Below are positions 1,696 to 25,072 of a stretch of 54,682 nt of DNA, piece after piece; the stretch's first letter is position 1; the number at the start of each line of letters is the position of its first letter. The stretch spans positions 1 to 54,682 of the forward strand of contig JAYTSX010000244.1 in NCBI GenBank assembly GCA_043745445.1, read 5' to 3'. A program made the translations under genes and the position numbers. A model generated the notes under the pieces. It worked only from the letters and a program-made list of their open reading frames with translations. It was not told where the DNA came from and searched no databases. Origin of the DNA: Elusimicrobiota bacterium (GTDB lineage Bacteria > Elusimicrobiota > Elusimicrobia > UBA1565 > UBA9628).

Positions 1696-3114
1696 ATGAT
1701 GACAACTCTTGTCTGGCTTGGCCGTGATCTGCGCTTGGCGGACAACCCCGCGTTGTTCGACGCCGCCGCCGCAGGTGCGGTGGTGCCCATTTTCGTTTGG
1801 CCTCCCGCGGATGACGCGCAATGGGCGCCCGGGGCGGCTTCGCGTTGGTGGCTGCATCACTCGCTCGCGAGCCTGGAACGCGATTTACGCAAGCGCGGCT
1901 CGCGTCTGATCATCAAAAAAGGCCCCGCAGCGACGGCGCTCGTCTCGGCCGCGCGCGAGTGCGGCGCCGGCGCTGTCGCCTGGAATCAATTGTACGAACC
2001 CGCGGCCCGGCGCCAGGAGATTGCCGTGCGAAGCGCTCTCGACGCGGCCGGCGTGAGCGCCCAGGTCCATGAGGGCAACATCCTCTTCGCGCCCGATGCG
2101 ATTCGCACTTTGAACGGCGGGCCCTATCGCGTCTTCACGCCTTATTGGAATCGCTGCGGGGCAGAGGCCGAGCCCGCCGCCCCGCGCGGCGAGGTCGGTC
2201 CGCTGAAGCTCCCCTCCAAGCTCCCGAAGTCTCTGACGCTCACCGAACTCGAGCTTCTACCCAAAGTCGCATGGGCCGGAGGTCTGAACGATGCTTTTAC
2301 ACCCGGCGAGACGGGCGCGCGCCGCGACTTCGAGGCCTTCCTGGCGGGACCGATCCGCAGCTACGCCACAGACCGGAACTTCCCCGCAAGCGACGGCGTC
2401 TCGCGGCTCTCCCCCCGTCTGCACTTCGGCGAGCTCTCGGTCCGGCGCGTCTGGCGCGAGGCGCTCGGCGGAGATCCCGCGGCCAAGGGCGGCTTTCTGG
2501 CCGAGCTCGGCTGGCGCGACTTTGCGCGCCATGTCCTCTTCCATCATCCCGCCACGCCGCAGACGCCGCTCGATGAGCGCTTCAAGTCTTTCCGCTGGCG
2601 CCACGACGCCAAGGGCCTCGCGGCCTGGAAGAAAGGGCTCACCGGCTATCCGTTTGTCGACGCGGGCATGCGTCAGCTGTGGGCCACCGGCTTCATGCAC
2701 AACCGTGTGCGCATGGTCGTCGCGTCCTTCCTCACCAAGGACCTGCTCATCGACTGGCGCGAAGGCGCGCGCTGGTTCTGGGACACGCTCGTGGACGCCG
2801 ACCTCGCCAACAACACCCTCGGCTGGCAGTGGGCCGCGGGCTGCGGCGCCGACGCGGCACCATTCTTCCGTATCTTCAATCCCGTCGAGCAGGGCAAGCG
2901 CTACGACGCCACGGGCGCGTACACCCGCCGTTGGGTGCCGGAGCTCGCGGCCCTGCCCGACCGCTGGCTGCACCAGCCCTGGGAGGCTCCCGTCGACATC
3001 CTCGCCGAGTCCAAGGTCGCGCTGGGAGAAAATTATCCCGCCCCGATCGTGGATCACAAGGCCGCCCGCGTCCGCGCGCTCGAGGTGTTCGGCGCCTCGG
3101 GGAAGGCGCGATGA
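1696..3114 (+). CDS. phrB: Deoxyribodipyrimidine photolyase (class I/III CPD photolyase)
   Basis: WLGRDLRLADNPAL, SRLSPRLHFGELS, TGYPFVDAGMRQL, MHNRVRM, GWQWAAGCGADAAPFFRIFNP. Confidence 0.93.
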   Translation: MMTTLVWLGRDLRLADNPALFDAAAAGAVVPIFVWPPADDAQWAPGAASRWWLHHSLASLERDLRKRGSRLIIKKGPAATALVSAARECGAGAVAWNQLYEPAARRQEIAVRSALDAAGVSAQVHEGNILFAPDAIRTLNGGPYRVFTPYWNRCGAEAEPAAPRGEVGPLKLPSKLPKSLTLTELELLPKVAWAGGLNDAFTPGETGARRDFEAFLAGPIRSYATDRNFPASDGVSRLSPRLHFGELSVRRVWREALGGDPAAKGGFLAELGWRDFARHVLFHHPATPQTPLDERFKSFRWRHDAKGLAAWKKGLTGYPFVDAGMRQLWATGFMHNRVRMVVASFLTKDLLIDWREGARWFWDTLVDADLANNTLGWQWAAGCGADAAPFFRIFNPVEQGKRYDATGAYTRRWVPELAALPDRWLHQPWEAPVDILAESKVALGENYPAPIVDHKAARVRALEVFGASGKAR

Positions 3115-4478
3115 GTGCGCGAGTTTTGCGCCGGACCCAGTGGCTCCCGCGTCCGCGCGCGGAGGTCTTCGCCTTTTTCCAGAATCCGGCGAACCTCGCC
3201 AAGCTGACGCCGCCGTGGCTCGGCTTCCATGTCCTGACGCCCCAGCCGCTTGAGATGCGCGCGGGCGCCATCTTTGATTACCGCGTCAGCCCGTTGGGTT
3301 TCCCGCAGTATTGGCGGACTCTGATCGAATCTTACGACGCGCCCAACAGCTTCGTGGACACGCAGCTCAAAGGACCGTACAAGCTCTGGCATCACACGCA
3401 CCGCTTCGAGGACAAGGACGGCGGCACACTCATCACCGACGAGGTCCGCTACGAGCTTCCGTTCCAACCGTTGGGCGAGCTCGCCGCGGGCGAGGTCGAA
3501 CGCCGTCTCGACGCGATTTTTTCTTACCGCGAATCCGCGGTCGCCGCGCTGTTCAAACCGAAAGGAGGCACCATGAAGATCATTATCGCCGGGGGCAACG
3601 GGTGGATCGGACGGGACCTCTCCCGCGCCCTGATCAACGCCGGCCACGATGTCATCGTGCTCAGCCGCTCCGGTGCTCCGAGCCGCATCCCCGGAGTGCG
3701 CACGCGCTCCTGGCTCGTCGTCGACGCGGGCGGTTGGGAAAACGAGCTGGAAGGCGCAGACGCGGTCGTCAACCTTTGCGGCGAGGGCGTGGCGGACGGC
3801 CCCTGGACCGCGGCCCGAAGGGGCCGTCTCCTGCACAGCCGCTTAACTCCCACGCGCGCGCTCGTCGCGGCCCTCGGCCGCGTCGAGAAAAAACCTCCGG
3901 TCCTCATCAACGCCTCCGCCGTCGGCTGGTATGCGCAAGGCGACGAGCGCCTTCAAGCGGAGACCGACGCTGCGGGGCCGGGATTCCTCTCGGACCTGTG
4001 TGTGCGCTGGGAGAAAGAGGCGCGCGAAGCCGAGAAGCTCGGCATGCGCGTCGTGCTTCTTCGCATCGGCGTCGTGCTCGGCCGCGACGGCGGTGCTCTG
4101 TCGCGCATGCTCATCCCCTTCAAGCTCGCGCTCGGAGGACGCCTCGGCGACGGACGCCAGTATTTCCCGTGGGTGCATCTCGACGATGTGACCGGCCTGA
4201 TCATGAGCTCGATTACCAATGAGCGCCTGCGCGGGCCGGTGAACGCCGTCGGACCTGAGCTCGCCACGAACGCGGAGTTTACGGCCGCGCTCGGTCAAGT
4301 CCTGCATCGTCCGACGCCCTTCCCGGTTCCCGCCGCCGTGCTGAGATTGACGCTGGGCGAGATGTCATCCTTACTCCTTGGGAGCCTAAAGATCGTGCCC
4401 GTAGCCGCGGTCGGCGCCGGCTACCGGTTCAAGCATCTCCGCCTTGAAGACGCGCTGGCCGCGACCGTGCGGCCATAG
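3111..4478 (+). CDS. SRPBCC domain fused to TIGR01777-type epimerase/oxidoreductase
   Basis: ATG 3111 overlaps the phrB stop (ATGA). SRPBCC motifs FF.NP.NL.KLTPP and GPYKLWHHTHRF, then GGNGWIG Rossmann motif, LRIGVVLG and GRQYFPWVH. The track ORF from 2679 is an over-extension. Confidence 0.85.
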   Translation: MSARVLRRTQWLPRPRAEVFAFFQNPANLAKLTPPWLGFHVLTPQPLEMRAGAIFDYRVSPLGFPQYWRTLIESYDAPNSFVDTQLKGPYKLWHHTHRFEDKDGGTLITDEVRYELPFQPLGELAAGEVERRLDAIFSYRESAVAALFKPKGGTMKIIIAGGNGWIGRDLSRALINAGHDVIVLSRSGAPSRIPGVRTRSWLVVDAGGWENELEGADAVVNLCGEGVADGPWTAARRGRLLHSRLTPTRALVAALGRVEKKPPVLINASAVGWYAQGDERLQAETDAAGPGFLSDLCVRWEKEAREAEKLGMRVVLLRIGVVLGRDGGALSRMLIPFKLALGGRLGDGRQYFPWVHLDDVTGLIMSSITNERLRGPVNAVGPELATNAEFTAALGQVLHRPTPFPVPAAVLRLTLGEMSSLLLGSLKIVPVAAVGAGYRFKHLRLEDALAATVRP

Positions 4479-17148: not shown

Positions 17149-17309
17149 TTAAGACGGTTATTGTAGCAAACCCGACGCGTGCGGGAATGCTGATCCCCCA
17201 CCTACGCCGCGGCCGCTCGTTTTCGCCCGCCGAGCGTCTCCCCGCGAATTTTTCGTCTCGGCCGGGCATAGCCCGTCCGGATGGTCCGCCGTTGGTCTTG
17301 CTCACTTGA

Positions 17310-17744
17310 TACCGGACGAGGCCCATTTTCGAGGAGAAGTCGTTCTTCCCCCTGGGATCGGACCGTCCGGAGACCTCGCGCTTCCGCGTCATCAGCGCGA
17401 CGCTCGAGAACCTGCCGGGGCTCATCAAGGCCGGGCGCATGCGCTTCGACTTCTTCCAGCGCGTGCACGGCCTGAGCGTCGAGCTCAAGCCGCTCCCCGC
17501 GCGCAAGTGCGACCTGATGCCGCTGATCGCGTCCTTCAGCCGCACCGGCAAGCGCCTCGCCTTCAGCGCGGACGCCAAGAAGCTCGTGCTGGCCCACGAC
17601 TGGCTCGGCAACGCGCGCGAGCAGCCCGGCCTGACCGACGAGGCGCTGAGAGCCATGATCTCCCGCATCTATGGAATCGAATTGTCCCGGCGGTCGGTCA
17701 CGCAATATCGCGCAGACCTTGGGCTGACCGCGCGCGGCAGATAG
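17310..17744 (+). pseudogene. Truncated sigma54-dependent activator (bEBP AAA+ C-terminal half) joined in frame to an RpoN-box-like HTH
   Basis: After a stop at 17307-17309 the frame reads EEKSFFPLGS...FRVISAT...GRMRFDFFQRV...HDWLGNARE (bEBP motifs). It continues TDEALRAMISRIYGIELSRRSVTQYRADL (cf. RpoN box ARRTVAKYR). No Walker A, GAFTGA or upstream start. Confidence 0.7.
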
Positions 17745-17759
17745 CCGCTCCGGAAACCC

Positions 17760-17788
17760 TGGGCCGCGCGGCCCCCAGAAGGTATACT
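17760..17788 (+). promoter_or_regulatory. -10 box TATACT (17783-17788) 7 nt before ATG 17796, with palindrome TGGGCC-GCGC-GGCCCC (17760-17775) over the spacer
   Basis: Read directly from sequence; leaderless-type spacing. Confidence 0.45.
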
Positions 17789-17795
17789 GACGGCC

Positions 17796-19208
17796 ATGAG
17801 CGTTCGGATCCATATCGCGGGACCGAGAGCCGGCCTGTTCGATTCTCGTTCGAGCGGCTTCCAACGGCATGCCCTGCTTGACGCCGTTCTCGGGCCATTG
17901 CTTTGTCCGGATGACGACAAAGGCCGGGGACTCCTCGAGTCTTGGCGTTCGAGCGACGACCTTCGCCTTTGGACCTTGCGGCTACGCTCCGGACTCCGAT
18001 TCCACACGGGACGAGCGGTGACGGCGCAGGACCTCGTCTTTACCTTTTCCCACATTCTTGCCTGCCCTCATGAGACGCCGGACAAGACTCTCCTGAGAAA
18101 CATCGCGCGGGACGGCGTGCGCGTCACCGGCGACAGAACGGTCGAGGTGGCGCTCGAGCAGCCTGACTCCAATTTCGCCCTCCTCATCAAGGACAGTTTC
18201 TACTCGATCGTACCGGAGGAGGAACTGCTTCCATCCGGTTCGGGGCTCGACGGGCCTTCGTCCAACTCGGGTTCGCATCTCGCTTGGAAACGCCATCCGG
18301 TCGGGGCCGGTCCGTATCGAACGGTCCGCGTCTCGGACGACGGCGCGGTCGTCGAGACGGAAGCGGCGCGCGACCTGCCCGAAGGCGCGCCGAAGAGCAT
18401 CCGTTTCTCGACCGGAGATTGCCCGCCCGATGCGGACGTGGCGCTCGGGTACGACGACAATCCGCTGCCCGGCCGCCTGCGCAAGAACGTCATCGACACC
18501 CCACTTGCGATCATGGGCCTGTATTTCGATTACACGCACCCCCTGGCGCGAAACGCCGATTTCAGGGTCGCGGTCTCCCTGGCGCTGGACCGCGCGGCGA
18601 TCAGCGCCTTGGTCGAGGACTCCAAACCCGCGAACGGCATGATCCCTTCTGATTTCTTGGCGAAATTCAAAAAGAAGCCGGCCCCTCCCCCCGGGCCCGA
18701 CCCGCGCCGGGCGGCGGATTTGTTCAAAAAGGTCATGGGCGCTTCGCTCGATTCTCCGGTCGCGATTCCCGTCGGAAGCCGCGCCATCGACGGACAATTT
18801 CCTCCATGGATCGTCGCGGTGGAGAAACAGATGAACCAAGCCGGCTTCCCCGCCCGCATGACGCCCGGCCGGGGCACGGCGCCGTTTTCAGTCGCCGGTT
18901 TCATCCCGGGAATACCGGATCTCGGCCGACTGTTCGCATTGTTCCGTGAAGGAACGGGGTGGGTCTCGCGTCTCGATGAACGCGATGGGGTCTACGACGA
19001 GCTGCTCGCCCGCGCCGCGACGCTCCGGGACTCGCCGGAACGCGAAGAGGTCCTGCGCGCGCTGAACGAACGCTTTCAGGCCCGCGCCTACGCCGTGCCC
19101 CTCTACGAAGAGCCGGTCGTGCTTTGGACCAATCCGGCTCGAGTGGCGTCCATCGGAGCGCGCCAAGGCATAAGCCTCGCTTACGAACGCCTGAGAATCA
19201 CCCCTTAA
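17796..19208 (+). CDS. Family-5 (peptide/nickel) solute-binding-fold protein without signal peptide
   Basis: WTLRLRSGLRFHTGRAVTAQDLVFTF, PVGAGPY and FRVAVSLALDR. No hydrophobic N-terminus. Confidence 0.75.
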   Translation: MSVRIHIAGPRAGLFDSRSSGFQRHALLDAVLGPLLCPDDDKGRGLLESWRSSDDLRLWTLRLRSGLRFHTGRAVTAQDLVFTFSHILACPHETPDKTLLRNIARDGVRVTGDRTVEVALEQPDSNFALLIKDSFYSIVPEEELLPSGSGLDGPSSNSGSHLAWKRHPVGAGPYRTVRVSDDGAVVETEAARDLPEGAPKSIRFSTGDCPPDADVALGYDDNPLPGRLRKNVIDTPLAIMGLYFDYTHPLARNADFRVAVSLALDRAAISALVEDSKPANGMIPSDFLAKFKKKPAPPPGPDPRRAADLFKKVMGASLDSPVAIPVGSRAIDGQFPPWIVAVEKQMNQAGFPARMTPGRGTAPFSVAGFIPGIPDLGRLFALFREGTGWVSRLDERDGVYDELLARAATLRDSPEREEVLRALNERFQARAYAVPLYEEPVVLWTNPARVASIGARQGISLAYERLRITP

Positions 19209-19209
19209 A

Positions 19210-20676
19210 TTGATACAACTGTCTCGGCGACGAATCGTGACGGCCGTCGTCGTCTGCGCGGCCGCCGGCCTCTTCCTCGCTCGAACCGGCCGCCGCAAGG
19301 CCGCATCACCCCCGAGCAAATCAATGGATCGCTATACCATCGCCTACGAGATCAAGTTCGAGGACTTCGACCCGCATTCTTTTACATCATACGCCAAGTA
19401 CGTGATCCTCCGCCAAATCTTCGAAACCCTCGTCCGAGTGGACGACAGCCTGAACGTCGTGCCCGGTCTCGCCGAAAAATGGAGCATCGACAGGGACGCG
19501 GGTGAGATCACCTTCTATCTGAGGTCCGCCCGCTTCCACGACGGCTCGCCCGTCACGGCGCTGGATGTCCGCGACTCGCTCCGCCGCGCGGCGCGCTTGG
19601 GCGCCCTCCAACGGCCTTCCGACGTCATCACTGCGGTCGATGAAAGGACGTTGAAGATAAAGATGTCTTCCGGCGCGGCGGAAGAGCTCCTGAGGAGTTT
19701 GACCCTCATCTATGCCGGCGTCGGAAAAGCCTCGACCGCGAGCGCGAACGGCTTCGTCGGCTCGGGCCCCTACCGCCTCGCATCTTACGACGCGAAGTCG
19801 GGGGCCGTCGACCTCGAACAATTCAACGGCTATTACCGGACGGTGCTTCAACCGCGACGCCTGGAGTTCCGGTGGGTATCGACGGCACGGATACACGAGG
19901 CCTTCGAACGCGGTGAAGTAGATGAGTTCGACACCAACAATTACCCGCTCGATGGAAACGCGACGGCGCCCGGAAGAAAGGTGGCCCTCTATTTCCCGAT
20001 GACGCGCTTCCTTGTCTTCAACCTGCGCTCCAACGTGTTCCGCGGCGTGGAGAACCGGAGGGCCTTCGTGTCCGCCTGGCCGAAGAAGTCGATTTCCAAA
20101 GAGCTCTATCCCTTCAGCGCGCCGGCGACCGGGCTCATTCCCAAGGGACTGTTGGGACACCTGAACGAAGAGGACGCGCGGCTGCCTCCGACGAAGCGCG
20201 ACCTGAAGGAGGAAGTGACCATCGGGACGGGCAATGCCTCCGAAGCCAGCGTACTTGAGAAAGAGCTCGCCCGCCACGCTCCCGGGCTCCGGGTTCGCCT
20301 GCGCGTCTACGCCCTTCAAGAGCGCATCATCGCCGACATCACGAATGGTTCCCTCGATGGCCGGATTTTCGGCAATTCGCCGAAGGACTTCGACGCGCGG
20401 TCTCTGCTGGCGACATTTACGTCGGGCCATCCGGTCAACATCTACGGCATCAAAGACGCCGGGTACGACGCGATCATCGACTCGCTCACGGGTAAAGACG
20501 AGGTTTCGCGGGAAGCCGCCCTAAAAAAGGCGGATCGACATCTGCTTCAACAGGCCTACCTACTGCCCCTCAGCTACACGCAGAGCTACCGCATCGTGCA
20601 TCAAGATTGTCCCGACGCCATCTGCGGAGATCACTTCCAGATCTGGGACCGCCAGTACGTCGGTGAAACGCCATGA
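19210..20676 (+). CDS. Family-5 ABC-type solute-binding protein with N-terminal anchor/signal
   Basis: SRRRIVTAVVVCAAAGLFLA; IFETLV, PGLAEKW, FHDGSPVTALDV and GSGPY. Confidence 0.82.
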   Translation: MIQLSRRRIVTAVVVCAAAGLFLARTGRRKAASPPSKSMDRYTIAYEIKFEDFDPHSFTSYAKYVILRQIFETLVRVDDSLNVVPGLAEKWSIDRDAGEITFYLRSARFHDGSPVTALDVRDSLRRAARLGALQRPSDVITAVDERTLKIKMSSGAAEELLRSLTLIYAGVGKASTASANGFVGSGPYRLASYDAKSGAVDLEQFNGYYRTVLQPRRLEFRWVSTARIHEAFERGEVDEFDTNNYPLDGNATAPGRKVALYFPMTRFLVFNLRSNVFRGVENRRAFVSAWPKKSISKELYPFSAPATGLIPKGLLGHLNEEDARLPPTKRDLKEEVTIGTGNASEASVLEKELARHAPGLRVRLRVYALQERIIADITNGSLDGRIFGNSPKDFDARSLLATFTSGHPVNIYGIKDAGYDAIIDSLTGKDEVSREAALKKADRHLLQQAYLLPLSYTQSYRIVHQDCPDAICGDHFQIWDRQYVGETP

Positions 20677-22343
20677 GCGAAAAGATCTCCTTCCGAGAGA
20701 GCATCATCACTCATGTACGGACCGGTCTCGTTCTGAGCACGCTGGCCCAGACGCTGATAACGCTCCTGCTGGCCGTTGCGTGGACGAACCGGAACATCGA
20801 AAACGAGGTGACCGGGATCGGCAGACAGCTCTCGCCCGAATTCGCCGGCGCCCTCAACGTCGACAACACGGTCGCGATCGTCGGCCGGCTCCAAGGGCTC
20901 GTGCAGCGCAAGCCCATCGTAGCGGCCCGTGTTCTGGGTCCTCAACTGGAGCTTTCGGCGTCCGCGGCGGGTCGAGCGCCGGGAACGCCGTCCGCTCGCT
21001 TCGTCACGCGAAGCTTCCCGCTGCCGACCGCGCAATCGGTTAAAGGCGATTATGCCCTCATCATCGTCGCCGACAGGCTCAGCTATTGGCCGCAGATCGC
21101 CCTTGCGATGCTCGCAATACTGAGTCTGGGCGTCCTGACGTACCTCGTGCTGACCAAGTACGTCAACGCGGCCGCGCGCAAAATCGGCGCGCCGATCGCC
21201 GAGCTCTCCGCCCATCTCGAGCGGGACGGCCTCGTGTCCGCGATCGACGGACACGAGTCGATGGAGATCGCCGAAATCTCGGTCATGATGCGGGCGCTCA
21301 GCGACGCTCAGACGCGCCTGTTCGACGTTCAAGACAAGATTCGCGAGGCCGAGGTCGACAAGAGTCTTTACCAGCTCGCCTCCCAAGTCGCTCATGACAT
21401 CCGTTCGCCATTGGCCGCGCTCGACGGCGCCATCGGCGACGCGGGACAAATGCCGGAAGACCAGCTCTCCCTGGTCCGCACCGCGACCGGGCGCATTCGC
21501 GACATCGCAAACGATTTGCTCGACATGCGGCGCGACAGGCGGGGGACGGCGCCGCCCACGATTCAATCTCTTGCCGCCGTGATCGAACCGCTCATCGCGG
21601 AAAAACAGATGCAGTACCGCTCGAAGCCGGGCGTCCGCATCGAGTGCAGGATCGTCGATGAGGCTCGCCGGATCAGCGCGCGAATCAACTCCGCGCAATT
21701 TGCTCGGGCGCTCTCCAACGTCGTCAACAACTCGATCGAAGCGCTCGGGGACGCGCCTGGGCGCGTCGCGACGAGTCTCTCGATTCAAGACGGCGACGCT
21801 CTCGTCAAAATCGAAGACGACGGGAAGGGCATCCCCCCGCACATACTCGAACGCCTCGGTCGGGACGGAGAAACTCACGGCAAGGAAGGAGGCTCGGGGC
21901 TGGGCCTGTATCACGCGAAAAGCTCGATCGAGTCGTGGGGCGGCCGCTTCGAGATCCAATCGGAAGCCGGCAAAGGAACGCGCGTCATTTTTCGAATCCC
22001 CATCGTCGCGACGGACGGCCCGCGGCGCACCGCGAGCGTCTTGATCGACGACGACCCGCTCGTTCAGAAGGTCTGGCTGATGGTGGCCAAGTCCAAAGGA
22101 GTGCCGCTGGCGGTCTTCTCGAGCCCGGCGGAATTCGACTCTTCGACGGAAGTGGCGAACACGGCATCGACGATCTTCATCGACTCCGAGCTTGCGGACG
22201 GCGTCAAAGGGGAGGAGTTCGCGGAACGACTTCACACCCGGGGATTCGCCAATTTATACCTGGCCACGGGAAAGTCCCCCGATTCCTTCCCCCCCATGCC
22301 CTGGATCAAAGGCGTCGTCGGGAAGGAAGCCCCCTGGCGCTAG
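20673..22343 (+). CDS. Membrane hybrid sensor histidine kinase with C-terminal receiver domain
   Basis: Two TM segments; H-box QVAHDIRSPL, N-box NVVNNSIEA, DDGKGI and GSGLGL. Receiver motifs LIDDD...FIDSEL...LATG...GK. Confidence 0.9.
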   Translation: MSEKISFRESIITHVRTGLVLSTLAQTLITLLLAVAWTNRNIENEVTGIGRQLSPEFAGALNVDNTVAIVGRLQGLVQRKPIVAARVLGPQLELSASAAGRAPGTPSARFVTRSFPLPTAQSVKGDYALIIVADRLSYWPQIALAMLAILSLGVLTYLVLTKYVNAAARKIGAPIAELSAHLERDGLVSAIDGHESMEIAEISVMMRALSDAQTRLFDVQDKIREAEVDKSLYQLASQVAHDIRSPLAALDGAIGDAGQMPEDQLSLVRTATGRIRDIANDLLDMRRDRRGTAPPTIQSLAAVIEPLIAEKQMQYRSKPGVRIECRIVDEARRISARINSAQFARALSNVVNNSIEALGDAPGRVATSLSIQDGDALVKIEDDGKGIPPHILERLGRDGETHGKEGGSGLGLYHAKSSIESWGGRFEIQSEAGKGTRVIFRIPIVATDGPRRTASVLIDDDPLVQKVWLMVAKSKGVPLAVFSSPAEFDSSTEVANTASTIFIDSELADGVKGEEFAERLHTRGFANLYLATGKSPDSFPPMPWIKGVVGKEAPWR

Positions 22344-22448
22344 GAGTGTGTCCGAGTAATCGGTTTTTTCACGCGAGAAACGATATATCGCTCCAACAAA
22401 TCAACGTATGAGTTTTCGACTCAAAATCGGTATTACTCGGACACACTC
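22344..22448. mobile_element. 105-bp MITE-like element with 17-bp perfect terminal inverted repeats and CTAG direct repeats
   Basis: GAGTGTGTCCGAGTAAT (22344-22360) and ATTACTCGGACACACTC (22432-22448). CTAG at 22340-22343 and 22449-22452. AT-rich non-coding core. Confidence 0.75.
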
Positions 22449-22462
22449 CTAGCGGTCGCGGG

Positions 22463-23410
22463 CTAGCTAAATGCCGCGCTTGATTCGCATTCCGCGAGCA
22501 ACTCACCGCCCAGCGCGGTCAGCTTGACGCCGGACTCACGCAGCGCCCGAGCGCCCGAACGCAACGCTTCGTCGATTTGCCCAATCCGGACTTCGAGGCG
22601 CGCGCGGCGCTGACTGGACAGGGCCGAATCGCCCAGCGCTTGGACGGCGAATTCTTTCATGTACGCGAGGGCGACGAGCGCGTGGAAGCTCTTGATCGCG
22701 GGGCGATGTTCGCGTCGGATCGCCGAATAAACGGGGGCGCGCAGATCACCATCGATGATGGGGTCCGCGTTCTGATAGACCATCAGCGCTTGATGGCCCA
22801 TCTCGTGCGCCAGATTAATCGCCAACTCGACGTCGCCGTGCTCCTCGACTTCAGGCAGATCGATGATGATTCCGCCTCGATAGAGATGGCTGCTGACGCC
22901 GCGGCCGTAGGGACTGCGGCCCCTCAGCGGGGGCCGGGCGCCCATCGGTATCACCTGCTTGACGAATTCGGCCGCGCGCGCGGCCAGGGATTCGTCGGCG
23001 CGGACGATCCAATCAAGCGCGGCCGGCACGGCCTGGGCGATCCGCGCGGCCCGACTCATGTCCAAGGTCTCGACGCACAGCCCTGTGGCTTCAGCGATCC
23101 CCAAATGTCCCAAGTGAAGATCCGGCGACGAGCTGAACGCGTCGTTCAGGAAAGACAGCGTCGCCGCGTCCGAGACGACCCGCGCGCCGCCGACGGCATC
23201 CGAAGCAGCGTAGTCCGAGGACGCGAAGTATCCAAGCCGCTCATGACAGCTCATCCACGGCCGATACTCCAGGAACTCCGAGCGGACAGCGCTATTCGCC
23301 CGTTCGAGGCTCTTGCGGTTCAGCTCGATCGACAGCTTGATCGCCCGCTCGGAGCCCTGGAGGCCGGTAAGCCAGCGTCCGGGGTAACGCCCCCGAACAC
23401 CGCGGCTCAC
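22463..23410 (-). CDS. HEXXH-motif protein, alphaKG-HExxH-type peptide beta-hydroxylase family
   Basis: NLAHEMGHQAL followed by VYSAIRREHRPAIKSFHA, matching the family pattern HExxH...S.(W)R...RP.....H. GTG start overlaps the stop of the upstream small ORF. Confidence 0.78.
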   Translation of the reverse strand: MSRGVRGRYPGRWLTGLQGSERAIKLSIELNRKSLERANSAVRSEFLEYRPWMSCHERLGYFASSDYAASDAVGGARVVSDAATLSFLNDAFSSSPDLHLGHLGIAEATGLCVETLDMSRAARIAQAVPAALDWIVRADESLAARAAEFVKQVIPMGARPPLRGRSPYGRGVSSHLYRGGIIIDLPEVEEHGDVELAINLAHEMGHQALMVYQNADPIIDGDLRAPVYSAIRREHRPAIKSFHALVALAYMKEFAVQALGDSALSSQRRARLEVRIGQIDEALRSGARALRESGVKLTALGGELLAECESSAAFS

Positions 23411-23583
23411 TTCGAGAAGGAGTGGTCGGTCAGGTCGGAATGAGTGATCGCGAAATCAGGCTTGATGGCGCTCATGAGCCGATCCATCATCAATTCGTCC
23501 GCGGTCTTCGGCTGCGGCGCCGGTGCGGTCTTCAAGGCCGCCATAGCGACAACGATCCCTAAGTAGTTAGCGATTTCATTCAT
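23407..23583 (-). CDS. 58-aa small peptide, candidate precursor/substrate of the HEXXH enzyme
   Basis: SD GGAGAGG (23593-23599) before ATG 23583. Sequence MNEIANYLGIVVAMAALKTAPAPQPKTADELMMDRLMSAIKPDFAITHSDLTDHSFSK. GTGA coupling to the HEXXH gene. Confidence 0.72.
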   Translation of the reverse strand: MNEIANYLGIVVAMAALKTAPAPQPKTADELMMDRLMSAIKPDFAITHSDLTDHSFSK

Positions 23584-23607
23584 GTGCCTGTACCTCTCCA
23601 GTAGACT

Positions 23608-23650
23608 AAACAAAGAGAAGGGACGGAGCGCAAGCGCTCCACCTCTTCCC
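23608..23650 (-). terminator. Terminator-like hairpin of the riboswitch expression platform
   Basis: GGGAAGAGGUGGAGCG-CUUG-CGCUCCGUCCCUUCUC (16-nt arms, one mismatch, GU pairs) followed by UUUGUUU. Confidence 0.6.
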
Positions 23651-23712
23651 CTGGTCTCATCCCGTTGAGGCGGGATCGTGGATACCCCGGGGCCGATTCC
23701 CCGAGCTACAGG
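23650..23712 (-). ncRNA. Purine-family riboswitch aptamer variant, 2'-dG-II-like
   Basis: CCUG-UAG-CUCGGGG-AAUCGG-CCCCGGG-GUAUCCACG-AUCCCG-CCUCAA-CGGGAU-GAGAC-CAGG. Three-way junction, GG/CC kissing loops, UCCAC (C at position 51), C74 and a lengthened J3/1. Confidence 0.7.
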
Positions 23713-23719
23713 CAGTTTT

Positions 23720-23763
23720 ATCATACACCACTGCGCGACGGGCCGCAGGTGTCTAAAGGCCTA
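23720..23763 (-). promoter_or_regulatory. -10 box TATGAT (23720-23725) plus degenerate upstream palindrome (23748-23763)
   Basis: The -10 box puts +1 at about 23713, the first base of the aptamer region. The palindrome GGTGTC-TAAA-GGCCTA lies 22 nt upstream of it. Confidence 0.5.
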
Positions 23764-23828
23764 GAACGGAGGGGGTCTTTATTCCCCCTCAAACCTAAGC
23801 GCCCTTCATCGAGATCCCAACCGTCAAC

Positions 23829-23845
23829 TTGGCATAAAAATTGAT
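23829..23845 (+). promoter_or_regulatory. Sigma54-type -24/-12 promoter TTGGCATAAAAATTGAT
   Basis: GG(23831-32)-N10-GA(23843-44). Matches TGGCA-N6-TTG with A instead of C at -12; 55 nt upstream of the precursor ATG. Confidence 0.62.
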
Positions 23846-23899
23846 CACTCCTAGGCATAAGGGCTCAGCGCACCGAGCCCACGCAACACGGAGGAACCA

Positions 23900-24037
23900 A
23901 TGAAGACTGAACTGAAGCAGACCGCGAGCCTCGACCTGAACCTCTTCAACGTTTCGGGCGAGTTCGAAGACATCGAGATGGTGATCAACGAGCTGTCCGG
24001 CAACGTCGAGATGTCCATCATGTCGCGCCGCTGCTGA
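23900..24037 (+). CDS. 45-aa RiPP precursor-like peptide (not in ORF track)
   Basis: SD GGAGG 23890-23894. Sequence MKTELKQTASLDLNLFNVSGEFEDIEMVINELSGNVEMSIMSRRC*. Strong GC3 bias; first gene of the modification operon. Confidence 0.85.
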   Translation: MKTELKQTASLDLNLFNVSGEFEDIEMVINELSGNVEMSIMSRRC

Positions 24038-24046
24038 TCGGATCGA

Positions 24047-24074
24047 GCTGGGGGGCGCGGCAGCGCCCCCCAGC
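24047..24074 (+). promoter_or_regulatory. Perfect 12-bp stem-loop between the precursor and the enzyme genes
   Basis: GCTGGGGGGCGC-GGCA-GCGCCCCCCAGC, no U-tract. Confidence 0.75.
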
Positions 24075-24097
24075 CACCATCACTTCAAGGAGGCTCC

Positions 24098-25072
24098 ATG
24101 CCCCACACGAATCTCATCACCGTCTCATCGATCGAAAGCGGCGCCCTGGACGGCGCCTTCATCCGGCGGGAATTGCCGGTCATCCTGAAAGGCGCGTGCC
24201 GGAACTGGCCCGCCTTCGACAAATGGACCCCCGATTTTTTCAAGCGGATCTACGGCAAGATCGAGGTCCCGATGAGCAACTATAAGATGGATCCCTATCA
24301 GCTCCAGACGCAGAAAGCGGCCATGCCGATCGAGGACTATCTGGACGGCGCCCTTCGGATCTCCGCCGGGCGGACCGGAGAGAACGAGAACCTTTATTCG
24401 GCCGGCTGGTTTTTCTGCAACGGGCACTGCGAACTACTCAAAGACGTCGCCGTCCCCTCCTACTTCGCGGAGAACTGGGCGGACCGGGTGCAGAAGGTGA
24501 TCCATTTCGACACGCGTTCGATCTTGTTCGGACATCCGAAAGTCGAGAGCCCGCTGCACACCGACTCGTTCTTCGTCAGCACCTATTTCGCGATGCTCAA
24601 GGGCCAGAAGCGCATGCGGCTTGTGGGGCCGGAGCACAGCGCGCACGTCAAGAACGGCTTCAACGTCTACGACGACGAGCGGGTTCGCGAGCTCGGCGCT
24701 AAGGGCGTTCCGGTCTACGACGCGGTGGTCGAAGAGGGCGATATCGCCTGGTTCCCGCCGGGCTGGTGGCACCATGTGAAAAACGACTCCTTCACCATCT
24801 CCATGACCACGAGCTTCGTGTCCTCCCATCACTTCCTGCCGTTCGAGCAGCAGGTGCGGGCGACCTTGATCAAGCCTCTCCTGCGGCTGGCCCAGGTCAA
24901 GGACGAAGTCCTCGAGCGCGCCTTTGACGGCGAGAACCTGGATCATTCGACGAAGGTCCTCGACGACGCGCACTACCTGCGCAACGAGACGCAATATGTC
25001 GGCTTCACGAAATCGGAGTTGGAGAAGACGGACCGGTTGCTCGAGCGTCTGCAGGACCGGCAGGCGGCGTGA
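24098..25072 (+). CDS. JmjC/cupin-like Fe(II)/2-oxoglutarate oxygenase
   Basis: SD AAGGAGG. Motifs PVILKGACRNWPAFDKWT, HxD (PLHTDS), GQKR and EGDIAWFPPGWWHHVKN. Confidence 0.88.
   Translation: MPHTNLITVSSIESGALDGAFIRRELPVILKGACRNWPAFDKWTPDFFKRIYGKIEVPMSNYKMDPYQLQTQKAAMPIEDYLDGALRISAGRTGENENLYSAGWFFCNGHCELLKDVAVPSYFAENWADRVQKVIHFDTRSILFGHPKVESPLHTDSFFVSTYFAMLKGQKRMRLVGPEHSAHVKNGFNVYDDERVRELGAKGVPVYDAVVEEGDIAWFPPGWWHHVKNDSFTISMTTSFVSSHHFLPFEQQVRATLIKPLLRLAQVKDEVLERAFDGENLDHSTKVLDDAHYLRNETQYVGFTKSELEKTDRLLERLQDRQAA

Follow-up and report, generated by a model that had tools for sequence, protein, structure and literature searches.

What would a stand-alone peptide oxygenase do with a small peptide that is encoded directly before it? 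This question is raised by two genes on the minus strand of a 54,682-nucleotide contig from an Elusimicrobiota bacterium (JAYTSX010000244.1, assembly GCA_043745445.1; the whole contig, C244, is called the window here): an open reading frame (ORF) for a peptide of 58 amino acids (aa) at 23407-23583, and a gene at 22463-23410 for a 315 aa protein of the aKG-HExxH oxygenases. An earlier note on this DNA had described the pair as a minimal two-gene system for a peptide that is made on ribosomes and modified after translation (RiPP). Here a different answer is proposed, which as a whole we give an even chance of being right: the peptide would be oxidised by the Fe(II)/2-oxoglutarate-dependent HExxH enzyme and feed a sensor composed of solute-binding proteins of the SBP_bac_5 family (SBP5) and a membrane histidine kinase, and the pair would belong to a modified-peptide signalling module, not to an antibiotic cluster.

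The coupled gene pair and its enzyme

The 58 aa ORF, which is contained in the ORF list of the window, is a real gene and is translationally coupled to the enzyme gene. Its TGA stop codon shares bases with the GTG start codon of the enzyme ORF in a GTGA overlap, and a Shine-Dalgarno-like GGAGAGG, read from the sequence, lies 9 nucleotides (nt) before its ATG (23593-23599, minus strand). The G+C content at third codon positions (GC3) is 0.76 over the 58 codons, compared with 0.75-0.87 in the neighbouring genes and 0.57 in the in-frame upstream extension (23584-23724); because GC3 is gene-like in the 58 codons and lower in the extension, the start of the 58 aa peptide is likely the one used. The stand-alone HExxH enzyme with its own coupled peptide, as reported in the earlier note, is thereby confirmed, and the layout described there (hydrophobic head, Pro-rich spacer, C-terminus) matches the sequence: hydrophobic residues 4-17 are followed by an APAPQP spacer and by the C-terminus THSDLTDHSFSK. 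On the minus strand, residues 1-20 (23524-23583) form the hydrophobic N-terminal segment, which is signal-peptide-like, without a basic n-region and with a Pro after it. Residues 28-46 (23446-23502) are amphipathic with Pro-Asp at the end and, on the basis of model contacts and a similar block in relatives, are proposed as a recognition (leader-like) element. Residues 47-58 (23410-23445) are the proposed core, which contains the family-invariant Ser55-Phe56 and a 2-residue tail and was delimited by alignment, motif enrichment and model contacts. A terminator-like hairpin with a T-rich run was observed about 40 nt upstream of the peptide start codon (23622-23643, minus strand); it is not above shuffle expectation and could be a 5' leader structure. 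In a promoter and terminator scan of 22200-24200 nothing exceeded the shuffles. Among sequencing runs, four DNA runs from a single study contain this DNA and may be its source, and no RNA run is listed for it.

As judged from family profile, a profile match to ChlH and fold, the enzyme is a member of the aKG-HExxH family with the corresponding predicted chemistry, which bears out the identity given in the earlier note. It scored 62.3 bits against NCBIfam TIGR04267 (aKG-HExxH-type peptide beta-hydroxylase, IPR026337; cut-off 40) over residues 130-308 and 63.8 bits in the genome-wide TIGR04267 search; a Pfam search of the enzyme returned no match. When a profile of 23 homologues was compared with the PDB sequences, the sole match was ChlH (8s5f, E 4.6e-10), with which the HExxHQ, R...RP and downstream His blocks align. 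H202 is invariant among the 23 homologues, and conservation reaches 90% or more for E203, H206, Q207, R232, R236, P237 and H243; the motif H202-E203-x-x-H206 (HEMGH) is encoded at nt 22793-22807. The roles of individual conserved residues as iron or 2-oxoglutarate ligands are presumably those known from ChlH. The AlphaFold2 model of the enzyme has a pLDDT of 94.4, and in Foldseek it matched the HExxH oxygenase domain of ChlBH (8s5f, E 3e-10, template modelling (TM) score 0.65-0.72 over the full length) and SjiH (22ob, 7e-6), followed by a Zn peptidase with E 0.13 and TM 0.25.

HExxH is also the classical zincin motif, and the aKG-HExxH enzyme PflC cleaves a truncated substrate hydrolytically (PMC12636437), so that the protein could be a zinc metallopeptidase which trims the small protein. 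We regard this as very improbable: the significant sequence and fold matches are to ChlH and SjiH only, that peptidase is the best peptidase fold among the matches, and the enzyme lies above the cut-off of the hydroxylase family. A Zn-protease identity was therefore rejected on the fold evidence.

No radical SAM gene is present in the window (positions 1-54682), as the earlier note had observed: 25 matches were found in the genome and none of them on the contig. Genes for oxidative enzymes that depend on multinuclear non-haem iron (MNIO, PF05114) were not detected at E <= 0.01 in the genome (93% complete). Partners of the radical SAM or MNIO type at other places of the contig were rejected, as the profile searches found none. 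Longer (fused) relatives of the enzyme were not found, which is weak evidence. To lack a radical SAM partner has ceased to be exceptional: BpmH, PflC/PosC and PesO are aKG-HExxH enzymes published from clusters without radical SAM (PMC12636437, PMC13060819).

The subfamily of the enzyme is rare, with 23 proteins at E <= 0.001 including that of the window, at identities of 27-68%. Matches to the enzyme family were few, with 2 positive genomes among 78 from the organism's own family and 2 among 401 from its phylum sample, the second match each time being a distant paralogue in genome G005; in the phylum of genome G443, the subfamily was present in 20 of 401 genomes (E <= 1e-20). Relatives with titled records are named as metagenome-assembled genomes of Bdellovibrionota (Bdellovibrionales, Pseudobdellovibrionaceae, Oligoflexia, Silvanigrellaceae, Bdellovibrionaceae and Oligoflexus). 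Two other HExxH loci were noted. The same genome encodes a second, longer HExxH protein of a different subfamily (464 aa, TIGR04267 112.9 bits; L001 1309-2703, minus strand, contig C369), the gene of which comes after that of a 254 aa membrane protein in a locus of 3.5 kb. On contig C30 of G005, a genome of the same genus, an ORF (846-992) overlaps with a length of 30-48 aa the start of an HExxH gene (949-1899, 316 aa, motif HECAH), which is followed by a major facilitator superfamily (MFS) gene (1865-3199; all L019, plus strand); this arrangement is nearer to a true minimal peptide-HExxH cluster.

A small-protein family beside related enzymes

To place the peptide, 25 loci with related enzymes were compared. 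Five of them (L005-L008, L014) were taken from 13 earlier loci, the other eight of which were omitted without a recorded criterion; most of these are 1.0-2.4 kb long, but L009-L011 have 6.5-8.0 kb. The remaining 20 are regions that were fetched separately, namely 19 of the 23 places from the scan of the G443 phylum and one from another scan; L005 and L007, which were already counted, and the two weakest places were left out. A small protein of 70-163 aa, picked by eye and hydrophobic at its signal-peptide-like N-terminus, is encoded directly upstream of the SBP5 or the HExxH gene in 19 of the 25 loci. N-termini were listed and scored for 14 of these 19 proteins.

The C-terminal ends of many of these proteins resemble that of the window peptide. 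The window peptide ends in DHSF followed by SK, the L006 protein in AHSF and seven further residues, those of L050-L052 in DHSF and A, that of L048 in RHSF and IR, those of L047 and L049 in KASF and ISGN, and those of L055 and L056 in ISF and KDAVL. 'HSF' occurs within the last 12 residues of 6 of the 20 positional proteins (window included) and of 1 of the 2703 remaining small ORFs in these loci; for 'SF' the numbers are 13 of 20 and 218 of 2703. About eight independent lineages carry the Ser-Phe. In an alignment of 11 sequences, Ser55 and Phe56 are the sole invariant positions besides Met1, and the block before them starts acidic and runs through a pattern of Ile/Leu/Met to a Pro-Asp/Val, the window peptide sharing an 11-residue spacing with L050-L053, L048 and L047. 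With a profile of this alignment, 1.84 billion representatives were searched, and 16 proteins matched at E <= 0.001; 14 of these sequences were fetched, and in the six that are not copies of the input, Phe is kept at the aligned position in all and Ser-Phe in four. A query of the ESM Atlas with the peptide gave no usable match, and phmmer with the peptide against the 2723 small ORFs of the loci yielded nothing significant, the best non-self sequences (the positional proteins of L050, L052 and L053, E 0.2-0.5) being a ranking hint only. As far as these sequence comparisons go, the peptide is one of a family of small proteins that accompany homologous enzymes, with a resemblance that is more than chance, and it looks like a minimal member consisting of a hydrophobic head and a conserved C-terminal module of about 32 residues.

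Subsequently, the complex of enzyme and peptide was modelled, with the 23-homologue alignment for the enzyme and the 11-sequence alignment for residues 24-58 of the peptide. The interface score (ipSAE) was 0.92 (0.92, 0.92 and 0.93 in the individual runs), compared with 0.01 for the best of three controls. The score mark used is one that 58 of 80 solved complexes reach, compared with 2 of 110 mismatched pairs, a calibration that is rough only, as own alignments were used. Contacts agreed between runs by at least 94%, and the pLDDT of the partner was at least 79. Peptide residues 29-46 lie on enzyme residues 22-37, 209-216 and 299-303, where the recognition stretch has its lowest-error contacts, and the HExxH site is touched by residues 48-58, in contacts with 169-176, 199, 203, 206 and 243. 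The model supports a substrate relationship without demonstrating one, and in combination with the conserved co-occurrence it makes the 58 aa peptide very probably the substrate of the enzyme.

In the proposed mechanism, N- and C-terminal helices of the enzyme would grip the amphipathic stretch of the peptide (about 28-46), and its C-terminal dozen residues would be threaded into the HExxH iron site. Oxidation would then take place at the conserved His-Ser-Phe end, where beta-hydroxylation of Phe56 or of His54/Asp53 would be the likeliest chemistry and the oxidative cleavage of the short variable tail a less likely one. His and Asp had already been named as plausible hydroxylation targets in the earlier note; the repeated His/Asp residues on which that was based are not invariant in the peptide family, as Ser55 and Phe56 are, and His54/Asp53 stay among the candidates. 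Adjacency and coupling of precursor and enzyme, together with a modelled recognition stretch and a core in the active site, are the elements of the RiPP definition that are seen or predicted here. As precursors in relatives have up to 163 aa, one might more aptly speak of a 'modified small protein'.

Binding proteins and histidine kinases around the enzyme

An SBP_bac_5 gene lies within 3.5 kb of the HExxH gene in 22 of the 25 loci and a histidine kinase gene within 5 kb in 21; both are present in 18 loci, and one or the other in all 25. A sigma-54 response regulator is found within 6 kb in 10 loci, and at least three of the misses lie at contig ends (L044, L056, L062). The commonest gene order is regulator, small protein, SBP5, HExxH and kinase, with frequent overlaps (for instance in L005, L006 and L014). 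In L055, L056 and L058 the order is small protein, HExxH, SBP5 and kinase, the peptide gene standing immediately before the enzyme gene like in the window. Loci with the order HExxH-SBP5-kinase also encode a secreted protein of about 165 aa between SBP5 and kinase (L058 7788-8306 and L056 8461-8952, both plus strand), which is SnoaL-like by Pfam in L058. The N-termini of most SBP5 proteins of the relatives are signal-peptide-like and those of 12 of 12 checked HExxH proteins are not; since the HExxH proteins have no signal peptides, modification would come before export. The signal-peptide-like N-termini of the small proteins suggest the general Sec pathway as their export route, and the earlier proposal of an 'exported or membrane-tethered' peptide fits the signal peptides of its relatives.

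In the window, homologous genes are found next to the pair on the plus strand. SBP_bac_5 protein a (SBP5a, 470 aa, 17796-19208; PF00496 E 1.6e-31) is 23-28% identical to the HExxH-adjacent SBP5 proteins of L005, L014, L008, L006 and L012 (E down to 1e-43). SBP_bac_5 protein b (SBP5b, 488 aa, 19210-20676; PF00496 E 3e-36) has peptide, opine and nickel binding proteins as its relatives in the PDB and is probably exported, judging from its Arg-rich hydrophobic N-terminus. They are followed by a membrane histidine kinase of 556 aa (20673-22343; HisKA and HATPase_c in Pfam), which has two hydrophobic segments around a stretch of about 100 aa (read by eye) and is homologous to the kinase after HExxH in relatives (E 2.6e-42 to L007). 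The three genes are contiguous, and ABC permease genes (BPD_transp_1; ABC, ATP-binding cassette) had six matches in the genome and none on the contig, which is the gene layout of a binding-protein-dependent sensor, with orphan binding proteins next to a kinase. Upstream of SBP5a, at 17310-17744 on the plus strand, lies the 3' remnant of a sigma-54-dependent response regulator. It covers positions 117-167 of 168 of Sigma54_activat (28.6 bits) and has a weak AAA_lid_14 match (E 0.0015, 18.8 bits, below the cut-off of 27), and in tblastn residues 266-392 of the 471 of the L050 regulator align to it (E 3e-14). The remnant corresponds to about the last 40% of the gene. Of the AAA+ domain the last third is retained, together with the lid and the helix-turn-helix; the receiver domain and the Walker motifs are gone. 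Its position is syntenic with the regulator of the relatives, the gene that opens the operon there. Between the convergent kinase and HExxH genes there is an inverted repeat with perfect arms of 21 nt (22340-22452; arms 22340-22360 and 22432-22452), which is probably a bidirectional terminator hairpin shared by both genes; the arm sequence occurs at a single place in the genome, and extended arms of 52 nt show 75% complementarity.

These neighbours bear on the possibility that the pair is a self-contained minimal RiPP, the hydroxylated peptide being released as a bioactive product and the SBP5 and kinase genes being functionally unlinked. The coupled pair is indeed convergent to the kinase operon and lies outside it, and the different HExxH gene of G005, which is preceded by a small ORF and followed by an MFS gene, demonstrates that such clusters exist in the group. 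Against this stand the presence of SBP5 and/or kinase genes at every related locus, often with overlapping genes, and the regulator remnant at the syntenic position of the window. Moreover, BLAST with the MFS and ABC proteins of the window revealed no homologue in the 25 loci; the search did not extend to proteases and immunity genes. We therefore consider a self-contained RiPP improbable. The minimal two-gene system of the earlier note does not stand either, as the pair of the relatives sits in a conserved module of SBP5, histidine kinase and sigma-54 regulator and that of the window shares an island of 13.5 kb with a second peptide operon.

This genomic island (17172-30640), which holds the whole module, lies between the genes for a DEAD-box helicase and endonuclease I and is absent from the four congeners examined. 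In all of them (G005, G014, G004 and G019), DNA matching the window up to 17170 runs straight into DNA matching it from 30644-30931 onward; since the helicase abuts the DNA from 30644 onward in these four, the segment is an insertion here or was lost in all of them. The helicase gene to the left is found in 38 of 38 genomes, with 70-99% protein identity across the genus. The second peptide operon lies on the plus strand. It begins with a 45 aa ORF (23900-24037), its own candidate precursor, which has a strong GGAGGA site 6 nt upstream and is followed by a GC hairpin (24050-24071, seen in the sequence), and continues at 24098-29994 with genes that were assigned by Pfam and NCBIfam to a JmjC/Cupin_8 protein, an SBP5-like protein without a signal, an MFS pump, a ThiF/E1-like protein that is extended at its N-terminus by about 120 aa, and an ABC-type ATPase (474 aa). 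YcaO, radical SAM or MNIO genes do not accompany it. Two of the three SBP_bac_5-like proteins of the island (17796-19208 and 25069-26325, plus strand) are without a signal peptide; cytoplasmic members are unusual and might partner the modifying enzymes by binding peptides.

With a JmjC-like oxygenase and a ThiF/E1-like enzyme at hand, the 58 aa or the 45 aa peptide could be processed jointly by them and the HExxH enzyme in one larger island RiPP cluster, exported by the MFS protein and regulated by SBP5 and kinase. This possibility draws on the island that unites all genes and is missing from the four congeners, on the divergent peptide genes, the start codons of which are 317 nt apart, and on the JmjC/Cupin_8, MFS and ThiF genes of the plus-strand operon. 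It is nevertheless unlikely, if somewhat less so than the self-contained RiPP: JmjC, MFS, ThiF and ABC genes of the window have homologues by BLAST in none of the 25 related HExxH loci, the plus-strand operon has a candidate precursor, ribosome-binding site and hairpin of its own, and the complex model covers the 58 aa peptide only. The plus-strand genes rather look like a second, separate peptide-modification (RiPP-like) operon of unknown class, which the sensor module might regulate, given the shared island.

Several observations weigh against the proposed sensing of an oxidised peptide. The neighbourhood and upstream-peptide counts leave out the closest homologues of the enzyme (46-68% identity). 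No small protein was picked in six of the 25 loci (L007, L044, where HExxH is at the contig end, L054, L059, L060 and L061), with L060 having a signal-peptide-like 95 aa ORF downstream of HExxH only, which was left uncounted. Seven of the 20 positional proteins (L005, L008, L014, L043, L057, L058 and L062) have no Ser-Phe in the last 12 residues. The motif was defined post hoc, and with close kin among the loci (L050-L053; L047 and L049) the enrichment counts suggest more independence than there is. When the 58 aa peptide was used in a word-based search, it retrieved itself alone (one candidate scored), by a method that is blind to diverged short peptides. The peptide N-terminus is atypical for a Sec signal, and because of the missing basic n-region and the Pro after the likely cleavage site its cleavage and even its export are uncertain; it could be tethered or cytoplasmic. 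The longest ORF of SBP5a has no signal peptide. Finally, the response regulator is a remnant and there is no other sigma-54 activator on the contig, and because the cognate regulator is truncated, the output of the circuit is uncertain here.

The same losses could be taken as signs of decay, in which case the island would have brought in a broken circuit and the pair would persist by chance without present function. A regulator cut down to its last part, an SBP5a without signal peptide and the scarcity of the enzyme family in genomes of the organism's own family and phylum are in line with this. However, the enzyme ORF is unbroken and has lost none of the residues conserved in its family, the peptide keeps its motif and a coding GC3, and kinase and SBP5b are intact as well. 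We judge a decaying import to be about as improbable as the self-contained RiPP, or marginally more so.

We thus return to the proposed module of oxidised peptide and sensor. The hydrophobic N-terminal segment of the peptide would take the product to or across the inner membrane, where the modified C-terminus would be read by the neighbouring orphan SBP_bac_5 protein or proteins and the membrane histidine kinase. For a signalling role of the pair by itself, the chance is put at even or slightly below. A more far-reaching idea, which we hold as tentative and rather doubtful, is that of a hydroxylation-dependent ribosomal peptide signal in Gram-negatives: an oxygenase would mark the His-Ser-Phe end, and the exported product would be read by an orphan SBP and a kinase that drives a sigma-54 regulator. 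Because the mark needs O2, iron and 2-oxoglutarate, such a circuit could inform the envelope about cell density or about the state of the cell with regard to oxygen, iron or carbon, and in this genome it may control the neighbouring peptide operon.

Relation to known systems

The aKG-HExxH enzymes are a recently recognised oxygenase family with few known substrates. The subfamily described here would add a substrate class, that of Sec-type small proteins with an invariant C-terminal Ser-Phe, and a setting, that of a two-component sensing module instead of a natural-product cluster. Should the binding protein and the kinase have the modified peptide as their ligand, Gram-negatives would here offer a rare example of signalling by an enzyme-modified peptide, together with a defined triple of enzyme, peptide and receptor that can be tested in vitro. 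Our literature search returned no paper that ties HExxH enzymes to solute-binding proteins and kinases or to Bdellovibrio. For the subfamily under its family accession, the only trace in the literature found was the sequence similarity network (SSN) of PMC12636437, the supplements of which, with SSN cluster tables that might list the subfamily, were outside the search.

Several known systems share parts of the proposed module. On the side of the sensor, a membrane kinase that is encoded next to an orphan periplasmic binding protein, transporter genes being absent, is reminiscent of the binding-protein-dependent sensor kinases LuxP-LuxQ and TorT-TorS, and a small hydrophobic-headed peptide in the same module is reminiscent of MgrB-PhoQ and SafA, small membrane peptides that tune kinases. 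To our knowledge, oxidation of the ligand or the peptide by a dedicated enzyme occurs in none of these systems. On the side of the precursor, bufferins, the precursors of which carry Sec signal peptides, are a precedent for the way of export. Like in these MNIO RiPPs (PMC11626156), the precursor would be modified in the cytoplasm by an iron enzyme and then leave by a signal peptide and not by a dedicated exporter or protease; bufferins differ in the enzyme family, in the modified residues, which are Cys, and in their metal-buffering role.

On the side of the enzyme, the nearest characterised proteins are ChlH/ChlBH, the beta-hydroxylases of triceptides (cyclophanes; 8s5f), with which the window enzyme shares the NCBIfam family, the HExxHQ...R...RP...H pattern, the fold over its whole length and, very probably, the use of a peptide as substrate. 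It differs from them in having no fused or neighbouring radical SAM, in an identity of about 16% and in its neighbours, a binding protein and a kinase; the putative substrate differs as well, being a small protein of the signal-peptide type with a C-terminal Ser-Phe. The enzymes of clusters without radical SAM are alike in other respects. PflC/PosC carry out a Gln hydroxylation and the oxidative removal of a C-terminal ARMD tail (PMC12636437), and PesO hydroxylates Pro, earlier targets being given as His, Asp, Phe and Gln (PMC13060819). Their clusters contain MNIO enzymes, which were not found in this genome (93% complete); the context here is a two-component one, and the absence of MFS and ABC homologues at the 25 related loci sets these apart as well (GNAT was not included in that search). 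Like PflC/PosC, BpmH and PesO, the window enzyme is stand-alone and would act near the C-terminus of a leader-bearing precursor, and a removal of the tail as by PflC/PosC would suit the variable tail of 1-7 residues that follows the Ser-Phe here.

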